A stretch of DNA of 64,000 nucleotides, from the IMG/VR virus record IMGVR_UViG_3300025120_010521, one strand, 5' to 3'. Below the pieces are notes generated by a model. It saw only the letters and a list, made by a program, of their open reading frames with translations, was not told the DNA's origin and did no database searches. Origin of the DNA: a virus (taxonomy: Duplodnaviria; Caudoviricetes). The translations under genes and the position numbers were made by a program. Numbering within the stretch: position 1 is the stretch's first letter; the number at the start of each line of letters is the position of its first letter. Shown piece after piece: positions 3,647 through 52,046 of this stretch.

Positions 3647-4444
3647 TTACTTTCTATTTTCAAAATATGGAATAAAAATATCATCAACAATCTTTTTCCA
3701 ATGTTTACTATTTAGATGCTTACCATCTGCATAATAATTTTTATCGTTTTGCGACTTGTTTATATAATCACGTATATTTTTATATCCTATTTGTTTGTTT
3801 ATACATTTTATATTATACTTACTTATTATTGATTTGTCAATACTACTACTAAAATTAAACCATGTATGATCTATATTTTTACTATCAAGGTATCCTGATA
3901 TTAGCACACAAACACTGAACAATTGATCTTCATAATAACCTTTGTTCCTATATACATTTATTCTTGTAGATTGCTGTAAAATTGACGCTGGTAACTGATT
4001 TTTAAACTTTTGAAATTTTTCTAATTTAATAGGATTAATGTCAGTGTCTCCATTATTTATTTTATAAAGATAATCTTCTTGAGAAAAAGTTTGATCCTCA
4101 TTATATCCTTTTTCATTATATTCAATCCAATGTTTATCATTTAAGACATCTCCTGATTGATACCTATTGTCTTCAACTGCAAACTCATATCTATCACGTG
4201 ATGGAATTTCTAAAAGAATAAAGTCTGGATTTATATCTTTTACTACGGAAATAATTCTAGCTGGATATGACTGTATTCCATATGATCCTAACGCACGATT
4301 GTAATAACTTTTGTAGCCTAGTTTTGTAGAAAGGTACTCTGACCATCTCTGTTCATTTTTCCAATCAACATAATGATCAGTGTCAATATTACTTCTGCAT
4401 TTTTCTTGAGTATGGCTTGTACCAATCGCCACAAACTTTTTCAT
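3647..4444 (-). CDS. SGNH/GDSL hydrolase-like protein
   Basis: N-terminal VAIGTSHT (GxS block I), NRALGSYG (block II), C-terminal DGKHLN (DxxH). Confidence 0.55.
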   Translation of the reverse strand: MKKFVAIGTSHTQEKCRSNIDTDHYVDWKNEQRWSEYLSTKLGYKSYYNRALGSYGIQSYPARIISVVKDINPDFILLEIPSRDRYEFAVEDNRYQSGDVLNDKHWIEYNEKGYNEDQTFSQEDYLYKINNGDTDINPIKLEKFQKFKNQLPASILQQSTRINVYRNKGYYEDQLFSVCVLISGYLDSKNIDHTWFNFSSSIDKSIISKYNIKCINKQIGYKNIRDYINKSQNDKNYYADGKHLNSKHWKKIVDDIFIPYFENRK

Positions 4445-5553: not shown

Positions 5554-5581
5554 ATTATATACTCTTTTACTACCTTGTCAA
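5554..5581 (-). promoter_or_regulatory. sigma70 promoter TTGACA-N16-TATAAT, 6 nt before nrdB ATG
   Basis: Read directly from sequence. Confidence 0.75.
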
Positions 5582-10203: not shown

Positions 10204-10232
10204 ATTATAACAATTTAAACTGTAAATGTCAA
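10204..10232 (-). promoter_or_regulatory. Consensus sigma70 promoter TTGACA-N17-TATAAT
   Basis: Both boxes are perfect consensus with 17-nt spacing. Confidence 0.85.
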
Positions 10233-18411: not shown

Positions 18412-19017
18412 TTAATAAGTTGAAACAATTTTATCTGCAATACCGTACTTAACTGCTTCTTTGGCACTTAACCAAACATCTTCAGCAGGTAATAGTATTT
18501 CTCTAATTTTCTTTTCGCTTAAACCAGTACACTTTTTATAATGATCTATCATCCTTGCTGTACTTAATTCAAACTCTTTTACTCTTGCAAATAGTTCGTG
18601 TTCTTTACCTACACTGCCCCAACTGTATTGATGTGATAGTATAGATGTGTTTGGTGTAATAACCCTACGACCTTTTGTACCACTCATAAATGTTAATAGT
18701 CCACATGATGCAATCATACCAAGTCCTACTGTTTTCACAGGAATTGCTGATCCTTTCATTGTGTCTATCAATGCAAATGCTGAATGTACTTGTCCACCCG
18801 GCGAATTAATTACCAATGTTAATTCTTTTGGTCTTGATGAATCTGGTAATAGATTTTTTTCTATTATTGCTTGTATAACTGGTTTAGTTGTATTGCTATC
18901 AAACCCATCACTAAAATACATAATACCAGCTTCCCACATTAACATTCCTGGTTGTAATGGTGGTTGTTTTGGATCTGGTCCTGATTTTTTCTTATTGTCT
19001 TTTTCTAAATTAGCCAT
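18412..19017 (-). CDS. clpP: ClpP protease proteolytic subunit
   Basis: INSPGG, GMIASCG (catalytic Ser), ILSHQ (His), EDVWLSAKEAVKYGIAD. Confidence 0.92.
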   Translation of the reverse strand: MANLEKDNKKKSGPDPKQPPLQPGMLMWEAGIMYFSDGFDSNTTKPVIQAIIEKNLLPDSSRPKELTLVINSPGGQVHSAFALIDTMKGSAIPVKTVGLGMIASCGLLTFMSGTKGRRVITPNTSILSHQYSWGSVGKEHELFARVKEFELSTARMIDHYKKCTGLSEKKIREILLPAEDVWLSAKEAVKYGIADKIVSTY

Positions 19018-48405: not shown

Positions 48406-49155
48406 CTATCCAATAATTATACCAAGTGGGTCACCGCCGTCTGTATAGTTTCTTATTTCTTCTTCTAATCTATCCATTGACACCTGTGCTTCTGCTTTTA
48501 AGTCAGCGCCATTTAATGTAACGCCACCTTGAGCACCAGGTAACTGACCAAATTTTGATCTTGCTTCGCCTAACATCATTTTACATTGTGCAAGTGCATA
48601 TTCTCTTATCCATGATTTTGCATAAGCGTCATCTAATAAAGTTTCGTCAGTACGTTTCATATATACTTGAAGTAATAATGTTTCGTCATTTCTTGGTCTT
48701 CTAACAATTGTTAGTTTTTTAGTTACTGTGTCCCAAGTAAAATTAATTTTATTACCAAACAACCTACCAATAGTTTCTTGATATTGACTAAATGCTTCCC
48801 AAGTAGTTAAGCCACCAATTCTTCCTGCTTGTAAAAAATACAAGTTAGTATATGCAATTTCAAATGGGTCAACATCAACACCTGATTGCTGGTCTGAACC
48901 TAAAGCACGTCTAAATGTTTCACGTACTTCAATTACTTCATTTGGTAATGTATATTCATTTGTATCTTTTTGCATTTGTAAAAATAATGTTGACTCTTCG
49001 TTAGCATTTGACGATCTTTGTCTAAATCTATCAAACGCCATGTCTAATCCCTGATTATAATGTTTAGGGTCAAGTTCAACATCAACCATACCATCACCAA
49101 GTAGGTTACGCATATCATTAATAATTTTATCTCTATTTGATTTCTCTTTGGCCAT
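48406..49155 (-). CDS. gp13: Neck protein gp13-like
   Basis: LGDGMVDVELD, WIREYALAQCK..LGEARSKF...GGVTLNG. Confidence 0.88.
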   Translation of the reverse strand: MAKEKSNRDKIINDMRNLLGDGMVDVELDPKHYNQGLDMAFDRFRQRSSNANEESTLFLQMQKDTNEYTLPNEVIEVRETFRRALGSDQQSGVDVDPFEIAYTNLYFLQAGRIGGLTTWEAFSQYQETIGRLFGNKINFTWDTVTKKLTIVRRPRNDETLLLQVYMKRTDETLLDDAYAKSWIREYALAQCKMMLGEARSKFGQLPGAQGGVTLNGADLKAEAQVSMDRLEEEIRNYTDGGDPLGIIIG

Positions 49156-49184
49156 TTTAATATCCTATACTTGTATTTATTTTA

Positions 49185-50123
49185 TTATTGAAAAATACGG
49201 ACTAGTACAGTTTCTTTATTTAGACGTCCGTTAAGTTTAGTTTCAGTAGTAGATAGTGCGTTAAAGGTGTTCTTAATCGCTTGTAAACCGCCCGCATTTA
49301 GCTTTTCCAGTACTTCTTGGGGTTTACGTACTGTTTTCTGTAAAGCCGTGCTTAGATCGTAATTTAACAGGGTTGTGCCTTTTAATGTTAAACCGTGGTG
49401 TTTATGTGTAGCTTCATATATACCCATTTTCCTGTTTTTAGTATTGAATACTATAACTGCTGAGCATCCAGGTAGATTAATAGGCTGTTCTGATACTAGT
49501 TTAAGATCTTTATCTTCTGCTTTGTATTTTACTTTAGCGGCCATTTTTTCTTTTGATGGTGGCTTATATTTTCGTGGTTTACGTTGTTTCTTTTTATTTG
49601 CTTCCCACAATTCACAATCTTTATAAACACGTTCCCACCATGCAATATGCTGTTTCATTTCAACTTTTGAATACGATTCAAAACTTTCAACATAGTCTTG
49701 TTGTTCATCTGTACGTTCGCTTTGTTTAATGTCTCTATATTTTAATCCTTTTGATTCTTCGTCTATATAGACATCAATCTGTTGTTTTAACATTTTCATA
49801 AAAGCACCTGGTATATCATTAGCAAGGAAATAATTGTATGCTTTAAATTTCTTATGATCACCATTTCTAGCCCATACATGTTCAAATTCGTCATCAATAT
49901 CACCAATAATATACAGCAATCGCTTATGCATACGGTCTTGAATTGACGGTCGTTTTGGCTTTTCTTCAACTACTTCTGCTTCTGCAGGTAGTTCTTTAAC
50001 TGGTTCTAGTTCATCAGACTGCTCAACTACCTCAGACTTAATTGGGCTACTATCTTCATCTAACCGCCTTAGAAAGTCAGGTATGTCCAGTAAGTTGTTA
50101 TCTTTCACGTTTTTCTTCTCCAT
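49185..50123 (-). CDS. T4-like conserved hypothetical protein with N-terminal FtsZ-tail-like peptide
   Basis: LDIPDFLRR at aa 12-20; C-terminal FNTKNRK...GTTL..Y...QKTVRKP; promoter TTGACA-N16-TATAAT at 50141-50168. Confidence 0.7.
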   Translation of the reverse strand: MEKKNVKDNNLLDIPDFLRRLDEDSSPIKSEVVEQSDELEPVKELPAEAEVVEEKPKRPSIQDRMHKRLLYIIGDIDDEFEHVWARNGDHKKFKAYNYFLANDIPGAFMKMLKQQIDVYIDEESKGLKYRDIKQSERTDEQQDYVESFESYSKVEMKQHIAWWERVYKDCELWEANKKKQRKPRKYKPPSKEKMAAKVKYKAEDKDLKLVSEQPINLPGCSAVIVFNTKNRKMGIYEATHKHHGLTLKGTTLLNYDLSTALQKTVRKPQEVLEKLNAGGLQAIKNTFNALSTTETKLNGRLNKETVLVRIFQ

Positions 50124-50207
50124 ACTGCTATATATACATCATTATACATAATTCGCTAGTTTTGTCAATCTTTAGTTGAATAAATACTTACATAAAAGGA
50201 TATTGAT

Positions 50208-52046
50208 ATGCCACGACTCAGCTTATGGAAACCACAAAAGGGTAATGATTACAAGATGATTGACCGGGTGATCCGCGAACATTTTAATGTTGGTGGAACT
50301 GGTGTATTCATACATAAGTACCTTGGTCCACATGCTCAAGCAAATACTACAGATAGTACACAGCCTGATAATTCAGTAGTACGTCCAACTAACATACAAG
50401 ACCTATTATTTTTAGAAAATAGAGATCGTAAGTATGATGCTGATGTATATGACATGCGTGGAGTATATCAAGTACAAGATTCAGATTTTGATTTAACACA
50501 ATTTGGTGCATTTTTATCTAACGATACTATCTATATGACATTTCATATAAATGATATGATTGATATATTAGGTAGAAAGTTAATGAGTGGTGATGTATTA
50601 GAATTACCACATCAACGTGATGACACAATGTTAGACATGGCACGTTTAGAGTTTACCACAAAGCCAGCAAAAAAATTTAGAAAAGGCGAAACTATAACAG
50701 GTGCAACAAGTGGTACAACAGGTACTGTAGTAAATTATAATCATAATGCAAAAGTTTTAAGAATGGTTACCGACGGAGACTTTACAGTTGGCGAAACTAT
50801 TACTGGTACATCAAGTACAGCAACAGGTGACGTTTCAGCTTACTATCCAGAAGGTCCACAAGCTATTAATAGATACTATGTTGTTGAAGACGCCGCAAGA
50901 GGTTCAGAAGGTTATTCACCAACTTGGTATCCACACATTTGGAGAATTAAATGTACTCCACTAACAGACAGTCCAGAGTTTTCAGATATACTTGGTACTG
51001 GTGAACAAAAAGATGATTTAAAGAATTTAATTTCAACATACCAATCAGAAATTGATATTAGTGAAGCTGTTGTTAATCAGGCACAAAATGAAGTTCCTAA
51101 AAAAGGATACGAAACTGCACACTTATATGTAAACAAAGCTGATCAATTTATTCCTGGTAACGTTTATGCACATTGGCAAACTAACATAGCATCATTTAAA
51201 CTTTACGAATCAACAGATACAAATTGGCAAGCATTTGATTACTTTGTTAGTTCAACGGCTCCAACTGCTAATTATAAAAATGGCGACTATTGGTTAGATA
51301 CAACAAGTACTAACTGGGGACTTTATGTTGGTAACGGTACTGTATGGAATAGTCAAACTGTATCAATTGTTGACTCAGCAAATATTGACGGAAGTACCAA
51401 GTCACCAATATCATCATATGTTCCATCAACTGATTATGCTATAGTAGTTTCAGATAGAAATGTTGGTGCATCTTATTTCAAAAAAGTTACAAACGGTTCA
51501 TGGATAAAAATTGCAACTGACTCAACTACTGTAGGACTACTTGGTGTTGACGTTGCTATTAATACTACACAACCTTCAACAAATACAGCTGGAAAAATTT
51601 GGTGGAAAACTAATACAACAAATGGATTAAATGTTTCATTTAAAAAATATTCATCAACTACTGATAGTTGGGTTACACAAGATATTAGTTTACACTCAAG
51701 CCAAGATTCGGCTAATAATGCATTTGGATTTAGTAATAAAGTCGGCGTACATGCTGGATCAGGTAAACCACCAAACGGTATTGCAATAGCACATACAGGT
51801 TCAAGTTTCCCTGCTTCATTAAATGATGGCGATTATATATTACGTACTGATTATGAGCCAAGCAGATTATTTAAGAAAGTTGGTAACAGATTTATTAGAA
51901 TATCAGACGATCACAGAGGCACATACTCTGCGGCTAATAGAATATTAAATACATTTATTGAAAACTCTAGTTCTAATCCTAAAACAGCAGATGGAAAAGA
52001 ACAACAAGGATTAAGTAAAGCAGTTAAACCTAGGACGGACGTATAA
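50208..52046 (+). CDS. gp14: Neck protein gp14-like with insertion domains
   Basis: IQDLLFLENRDRKYD, FDLTQFGAFL, GDVLELPH, WYPHIWRIKC. Confidence 0.8.
   Translation: MPRLSLWKPQKGNDYKMIDRVIREHFNVGGTGVFIHKYLGPHAQANTTDSTQPDNSVVRPTNIQDLLFLENRDRKYDADVYDMRGVYQVQDSDFDLTQFGAFLSNDTIYMTFHINDMIDILGRKLMSGDVLELPHQRDDTMLDMARLEFTTKPAKKFRKGETITGATSGTTGTVVNYNHNAKVLRMVTDGDFTVGETITGTSSTATGDVSAYYPEGPQAINRYYVVEDAARGSEGYSPTWYPHIWRIKCTPLTDSPEFSDILGTGEQKDDLKNLISTYQSEIDISEAVVNQAQNEVPKKGYETAHLYVNKADQFIPGNVYAHWQTNIASFKLYESTDTNWQAFDYFVSSTAPTANYKNGDYWLDTTSTNWGLYVGNGTVWNSQTVSIVDSANIDGSTKSPISSYVPSTDYAIVVSDRNVGASYFKKVTNGSWIKIATDSTTVGLLGVDVAINTTQPSTNTAGKIWWKTNTTNGLNVSFKKYSSTTDSWVTQDISLHSSQDSANNAFGFSNKVGVHAGSGKPPNGIAIAHTGSSFPASLNDGDYILRTDYEPSRLFKKVGNRFIRISDDHRGTYSAANRILNTFIENSSSNPKTADGKEQQGLSKAVKPRTDV

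Follow-up and report, generated by a model that had tools for sequence, protein, structure and literature searches.

A 312-residue protein of an uncultured giant marine phage carries near its N-terminus the peptide LDIPDFLRR, which, as judged from sequence comparison, is a genuine, selected look-alike of the conserved C-terminal peptide of FtsZ. Through this peptide the phage protein probably plugs into the host division machinery and competes there, an assignment that we make from the sequence. The two features concerned are as follows:

50064..50090, minus strand: FtsZ-tail-like peptide LDIPDFLRR, residues 12-20 (conservation, profile matches and synonymous codons)
49185..50123, minus strand: ORF of 312 aa, a phrog_11903 member with a replaced N-terminus (phrog_11903, E 2.2e-50)

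The window, by which we mean the whole 64-kb stretch of DNA that was analysed, recurs in marine metagenomes of many studies. Its major capsid protein is nearest to those of PA5oct, Phosso, Vibrio 2.275.O and Rak2-type jumbo phages, and its G+C content is 33%. Jumbo phages of the PA5oct, Phosso and Rak2 type are AT-rich regardless of host, PA5oct having about 33% G+C against about 66% in its Pseudomonas host, so the base composition of the window was not taken as a host signal. SAR11, whose FtsZ tail reads DFEIPAFLRRQKF, was raised as a host merely as an example.

The original prediction had placed LDIPDFLRR at residues 12-20 of this ORF, followed by an acidic, low-complexity linker. The peptide lies exactly there, and the linker is present as EQSDELEPVKELPAEAEVVEE at residues 34-54. 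Six-frame translation of the window gave no other real ORF with a motif of this type. The target protein has 504 homologues in a collection of 5.8 billion proteins, and every full-length close relative (about 70 clusters, 54-87% identity) keeps (D/N)LL(D/E/Q)IP(D/E/S)FL(R/K)R at the same place, so that the predicted motif holds up among homologues. Residues L11, L12, I14, P15, F17 and L18 are invariant and R20 is nearly so, while the adjoining linker varies freely; I14, P15, F17 and L18 are likewise invariant among 22 aligned homologues. Across 13 distinct DNA versions, taken from the window and from IMG/VR contigs, the motif codons vary synonymously at L11, L12, I14, P15, F17, L18 and R20, the set seen comprising TTA/TTG/CTA, CTG/TTA, ATA/ATT, CCT/CCA, TTT/TTC and four Arg codons. 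Synonymous codon change with fixed residues indicates selection on the peptide and not on the DNA. The only in-frame starts before the conserved PSIQDR segment (from P58) are the ATG at codon 1 and a GTG at codon 6. Because both lie 5′ of the motif, the motif is translated from either one, and a true start downstream of it, which would have left the peptide unmade, is excluded.

A profile covering residues 1-45, derived from 22 homologues, was run against all 177,635 distinct PDB sequences at a permissive threshold. The profile gave three matches, all of them FtsZ and all aligned at the extreme C-terminal tail, namely P. aeruginosa FtsZ (DLDYLDIPAFLRRQAD) and the FtsZ chains of 9isk and 8h1o, which end in DYLDIPAFLRKQAD. 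A single-sequence phmmer search of residues 1-33 against the PDB gave no match. LDIPDFLRR fits the core consensus [DE]-[IV]-P-x-[FY]-[LM]-[RK]-[RKQ] with its hydrophobic hot spots, and it shares the core L-[DE]-I-P-x-F-L-R-[RK] with the conserved C-terminal peptide of FtsZ (CTP or CCTP; E. coli 370-383, DYLDIPAFLRKQAD; PDB 1F47 with ZipA and 4A2A with FtsA). Both peptides have an acidic residue upstream and basic residues downstream, and both are presented on a disordered linker. They differ in that the phage peptide is N-terminal, whereas that of FtsZ lies near the C-terminus. Unlike FtsZ, the phage protein has no tubulin/FtsZ domain and, as far as is known, no filament multivalency; no such GTPase domain was found in the target ORF, which has no Pfam match and an AlphaFold2 (AF2) fold that is helical with a small beta domain.

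At position x the phage peptides have D, E or S in place of the A that is usual in proteobacterial FtsZ, although many natural FtsZ tails also have D or E there. When 185,579 species genomes were scanned for L[DE]IP[DE]FLRR, at least 120 matches were obtained, and about 35 of the matches listed were FtsZ tails. The tail is LDIPDFLRRRRP in cyanobacterial FtsZ and MLDIPEFLRRQAD in a Pseudomonadales FtsZ (L078), compared with DLLDIPEFLRRQS in phage relatives. Since natural FtsZ tails have D or E at the variable position, the phage peptide falls within natural FtsZ tail space. Among the listed genome matches whose ORF was classified (the roughly 35 FtsZ tails, and ten ORFs through Pfam), FtsZ was the only housekeeping carrier, and no classical sliding-clamp client was recognised. 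The FtsZ tail DYLDIPAFLRKQAD binds ZipA, FtsA, MinC, ZapD, ClpX and SlmA, and the substitutions I374K and L378E abolish binding (PMC4117426). Of the invariant phage residues, I14, P15, F17 and L18 are the equivalents of E. coli I374, P375, F377 and L378, so that the experimentally critical positions of the FtsZ tail are retained.

We then analysed the occurrence of the same peptide on other phage and mobile-element proteins. In IMG/VR, the DNA pattern for L[DE]IP[DE]FLRR was found in 78 stretches, against 3 for a reversed-peptide control of identical degeneracy, and 14 of the 78 belonged to the target clade. In 59 strict ORFs outside this clade, the motif lay within 30 residues of the N-terminus in 25 cases, within 30 residues of the C-terminus in 14 and in internal linkers in 19. 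The flanks of these carriers were acidic upstream and rich in P, K and T downstream. Motif-bearing proteins of at least 40 residues, target clade included, formed 38 sequence-unrelated clusters (at least 37 further ones). Identified carriers in IMG/VR were fusions of ParB_N with DNA methyltransferases, MT-A70 methylases, a DUF1376 primosomal/replication-initiator protein and a DUF5131 protein. The IMG/VR carrier loci are L150-L221, for example L182:7797-7922, L157:2362-2508, L155:2592-2753, L190:3474-3815 and L159:1968-2288. Many of the carriers were only 41-113 residues long and held little beyond the motif and a basic tail; by their composition, these small proteins look like dedicated FtsZ-tail decoys.

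In bacterial genomes, the carriers other than FtsZ among the matches listed were mainly about 25 alphaproteobacterial ParB_N proteins of 800-1,400 aa ending in PLEIPEFLRRVH, and the same matches included MT-A70 methyltransferases with LDIPDFLRR near the C-terminus. These bacterial ParB_N and MT-A70 carriers are probably mobile-element proteins that use the same tail. Their contigs include L053:3166-5979, L066:616-4149, L055:3754-6567, L065:509-2053 and L142:2146-3420. In Pelagibacteraceae (L033:933-2174 and L143:2-1345), we observed a 414-448-aa protein with no Pfam match and with DFEIPEFL(S/R)R in its C-terminal region, a sequence near that of the FtsZ tail of SAR11, DFEIPAFLRRQKF; the protein is a possible second cellular carrier of the tail motif. 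As a separate observation, a SAR11 genome (L146:946-2457, L147:1234-2430) has its ftsZ outside the ddl-ftsQ-ftsA-lpxC cluster, beside an rsmH-like gene, and its FtsA is very divergent, scoring 83 bits against a TIGR01174 cut-off of 176. Two low-GC marine viral contigs (L151:5661-8789 and L209) encode a phrog_9854 protein of more than 1,000 aa in which LLDIPEFLRR stands midway along an extended K/E-rich low-complexity linker, and their G+C content of 0.32-0.33 resembles that of the phage in the window.

The carriers found elsewhere mostly handle DNA (the ParB_N-methyltransferase fusions, the MT-A70 methylases and the DUF1376 primosomal/initiator protein), and a motif on methyltransferases, ParB-like proteins and initiators suits a DNA-replication hub at least as naturally as it suits the divisome. 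The peptide could accordingly be a docking tag for another hub, such as the host beta clamp, a phage gp45-type clamp or another replication or phage protein, with a convergent likeness to FtsZ. T4-type clamp tails contain LDFL, and Hda has an N-terminal QLSLPL. Replication docking tags (the beta-clamp QL[SD]LF, the clamp tails of T4 gp43, gp33 and gp55, and the SSB tail DDDIPF) are likewise short terminal peptides that connect varied proteins to one hub through flexible tethers. The phage motif, however, has neither the Q nor the LF core of beta-clamp motifs and keeps the obligatory P and the following RR typical of FtsZ. It matches neither the beta-clamp consensus QL[SD]LF or QLxLxL nor the T4-clamp consensus (S)LDFL(F/Y). 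The replication genes gp32, UvsX, UvsY, gp41 and gp61 lie further left in the window; among the replication proteins encoded there, to which the polymerase, gp33 and gp55 do not belong, neither the products of these genes nor the helicases have a similar terminus, and no other protein in the window bears the tag. Together with the profile that matched only FtsZ in the PDB and with the lack of classical clamp clients among the listed genome matches with a classified ORF, these points make a different hub an unlikely partner.

Having compared the peptide with FtsZ tails, we turned to the protein that bears it. The AF2 model, built with 46 homologues, had a mean pLDDT of 80.9. Residues 1-55 were predicted to be disordered, with a short helix at 16-23 and a pLDDT below 50 at residues 1-13 and 21-52. 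The parts that follow the peptide are:

49959..50063, minus strand: acidic, hypervariable, disordered linker, residues 21-55 (AF2 pLDDT and homologue alignment)
49584..49952, minus strand: conserved helical domain, residues 58-180, opening with the near-invariant PSIQDR (AF2 pLDDT 84-95, alignment)
49533..49583, minus strand: basic linker KKKQRKPRKYKPPSKEK, residues 181-197, with R184 and K187 invariant (alignments)
49188..49532, minus strand: beta-rich C-terminal domain, residues 198-312, weakly resembling an Sm/LSm-like small barrel (AF2 model)

When residues 181-312 were refolded alone with AF2, the mean pLDDT was 89.6. An Sm/LSm or KTSC fold is not claimed for the C-terminal domain, as the matches (Z at most 4.0, E at least 0.1) were not significant. 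The target ORF has no Pfam family; a whole-family profile gave no match in the PDB, and Foldseek with the whole model found nothing significant there. A VIA-wide fold search with the whole model returned, from the PDB, generic helical bundles only (Z at most 7.7), the structure search of the ESM Atlas reached a TM of at most 0.31, and its feature search found nothing. The clear match was to phrog_11903 (residues 50-311 against profile positions 135-383, E 2.2e-50), and structural matches in BFVD had E values of 1e-22 to 1e-14. All structural and sequence relatives of the target are uncharacterised phage proteins.

The phrog_11903 family comprises 3,410 representative clusters (50% identity, E at most 1e-3) and is found in Cr30, phiM12-like, DLP6-like and PA5oct-like phages. 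Members such as Cr30 AGS80890, phiM12_258 of a Sinorhizobium phage and PA5oct EST35_0192, all annotated as hypothetical, have a homologous core made of the PSIQDR helix domain, the RKPRK linker and the beta domain, but unlike the target they have no FtsZ-like peptide. Where the target clade has the peptide, other family members have an N-terminal domain of about 130 residues with a basic tip, and among the best 150 of the 3,410 representatives the FtsZ-like peptide was found only in the target clade. On a core with a conserved function of its own, the peptide has thus taken the place of a folded N-terminal module. Because this is a domain swap on a conserved core, we take the peptide for a docking module rather than a bare decoy.

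The domain swap bears directly on whether the protein serves solely to block division by titrating FtsA or other anchors, with the core merely a carrier. Free FtsZ tail fragments are inhibitory, since those spanning residues 354-383 have an inhibitory effect on the growth of E. coli in vivo, with FtsA subdomain 2B as their predicted binding site (PMC11831152), and the 41-113-aa phage proteins with little but the motif and a basic tail show that minimal forms exist. The core, however, is strongly conserved over the 3,410 clusters, most of which lack the motif, which argues that it has its own function, and the monomeric free tail peptide is a weak binder, with a Kd of 20-80 uM (PMC4117426). A pure decoy is very unlikely on these grounds.

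The gene also stands apart from its surroundings in its expression signals. The features of this region are:

50141..50168, minus strand: sigma-70-type promoter TTGACA-16 nt-TATAAT, early-type (12/12 match)
49174..49181, minus strand: late-type AATAAATA box in a 29-nt gap ahead of the neck gene 48406..49155, which forms a separate late transcription unit (sequence reading)
48406..49155: gp13-like neck gene, phrog_211, downstream of the 49185..50123 ORF (PHROG match)
50179..50186, plus strand: late-type AATAAATA box of the divergent virion gene 50208..52046 (sequence reading)
50208..52046, plus strand: divergent virion structural gene, phrog_11591 (PHROG match)

A near-consensus sigma70 promoter, and hence likely early expression, had been proposed for the target gene. 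The promoter is of the early type and in fact perfect, and its hexamers, spacing and ATG context are identical in 20 IMG/VR relatives. Perfect TTGACA/TATAAT sites number four in the 64-kb window, compared with 0.22 expected from shuffles. The other three (TTGACA-N16-18-TATAAT at 3812-3840, 5554-5581 and 10204-10232, minus strand) lie near the nrdA/nrdB region and probably mark early or middle units. Both AATAAATA boxes, which are of the T4-late type, are located about 20 nt ahead of the ATGs of the neighbouring genes. The box at 50179-50186 is set about 10 nt upstream of the early promoter's -35 hexamer; at this distance, early and late control share an 84-nt divergent region, which is nearly invariant in relatives. 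The late structural module around the target gene includes the portal, prohead protease, major capsid, sheath, tube, gp15 and terminase genes. A perfect promoter between neighbours of the AATAAATA type indicates that the target is an early-type unit inside this module. At least two studies have metatranscriptome contigs that overlap parts of the target ORF, although DNA carry-over is possible and the contigs carry no timing.

The location within a structural module, and several hydrophobic-x-Glu triplets in the linker, would also suit a capsid-targeting or other processing leader, or else a conserved N-terminus without a host partner. This is extremely unlikely, given that the gene has an early-type promoter where its neighbours have late boxes, that the motif is unlike the T4 CTS and that the same peptide occurs at the C-termini and in internal linkers of other proteins. 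The PA5oct homologue EST35_0192, which is directly upstream of the neck gene in the same synteny as in the window, has no ESI-MS/MS virion note, whereas its three neighbours carry one. This annotation argues, weakly, that the target is probably not a virion protein.

The original prediction had also pointed to a ClpP encoded by the phage, and such a gene is present:

18412..19017, minus strand: phage ClpP, adjoining the primase gene (PF00574, E 1.5e-32)

Its presence raises the reading that the peptide is a recognition tag for ClpX. The N-domain of host ClpX would read the peptide, leading either to timed unfolding or degradation by ClpXP, with the phage ClpP adding capacity, or to the occupation of ClpX. 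The C-terminal 18 residues of FtsZ, including DYLDIPAFLRKQAD, are listed as a ClpX degron (PMC8138137), and ClpX is among the FtsZ-tail partners given above. The phage ClpP is circumstantial support, and replication initiators and other mobile-element proteins also carry the motif. Such proteins are classical ClpX clients (lambda O, MuA, TrfA). On the other hand, the invariant L, I, P, F and L are the residues used by FtsA, ZipA and SlmA, while ClpX reportedly relies, according to 2014 work by Camberg and colleagues, chiefly on the basic/acidic residues at the very end of the E. coli FtsZ tail. Furthermore, no ClpX gene was seen within the 64-kb window, and the N-terminal ClpX tags known so far have a different look. 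We regard a ClpX tag as improbable.

The reading that we prefer, though tentatively, is that, early in infection, the core is docked through the peptide on a host protein that reads the FtsZ tail, which would localise the core and set the peptide in competition with FtsZ. The N-terminal peptide would act as a short linear motif that copies the FtsZ tail and is displayed on a floppy acidic tether. Early in infection, it would dock the conserved core onto the host protein that reads the FtsZ tail. The likeliest partner would be FtsA, because it is the most widespread FtsZ-tail reader in Proteobacteria, with ZipA, MinC, SlmA or ZapD possible depending on the host. Docking would bring the core to the membrane-proximal division apparatus, and the core, with its helical domain, invariant basic linker and small beta-barrel, may bind nucleic acid. 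The docked peptide would at the same time compete with FtsZ for its anchors, so that division would be weakened or delayed. The partner, the localisation and the effect on division are all inferred. Since monomeric tails bind as weakly as described above, a useful effect would need abundance or oligomerisation.

A folded N-terminal domain elsewhere in the family, together with the peptide on unrelated DNA-handling proteins, points to a docking or recruiting role, of which competition with FtsZ would be a consequence. The original prediction had proposed a decoy. Its view of a genuine, conserved FtsZ-tail look-alike on a disordered linker, in a gene with an early-type promoter, stands, whereas the conserved 250-residue core, the domain swap and the unrelated carriers indicate that the protein is not just a decoy. 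It is also possible, although we hold this with considerable doubt, that phages and mobile elements make general use of the FtsZ tail peptide as a plug, so far undescribed, which docks on host FtsZ-tail readers and either ties foreign DNA transactions to the divisome or stops division. Its carriers, dozens of unrelated proteins, would then include the target early protein, the ParB-methyltransferase fusions, the MT-A70 methylases, the DUF1376 initiators, the ParB_N proteins and the mini-proteins, with tethers at either end.

The present analysis adds a domain swap conserved within a large family, a test of specificity across the PDB and an enrichment of 78 versus 3. The spread of this enrichment over at least 38 unrelated clusters suggests that the trick is common and has been overlooked. 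A full-text literature search returned no paper on copying of the FtsZ tail by proteins of phages or plasmids. To our knowledge, phages block or exploit host division only via dedicated inhibitors, which bind either FtsZ or proteins of the late divisome. A copy of the FtsZ docking tail would offer another way, and a highly economical one, since nine tethered residues would, if the reading is true, give access to every tail reader. Possible yields are natural peptide leads against the FtsZ-anchor interface and a handle on the function of a phage family of thousands.

When we compared the target with known systems, a precedent for the behaviour proposed here was phi29 p1, which, as cited in PMC3961180, associates with the FtsZ ring and promotes phage DNA replication. 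Like the target as we propose it, the phage protein p1 exploits the host division ring as a scaffold without destroying it; its sequence is unrelated, its host is Gram-positive and its mechanism of association is not tail mimicry. Lambda Kil (ZipA-dependent), T7 Gp0.4, SPO1 gp56 and DicB are phage-encoded, often early, and act on the FtsZ ring or its anchors (PMC3961180). The target has no sequence or fold homology to these four (no Pfam match, and in PHROG only the unannotated phrog_11903), and for none of them has a copy of the FtsZ tail been described. Being small dedicated peptides, they also differ from the target, in which the FtsZ-like peptide is a tag on a large conserved protein.
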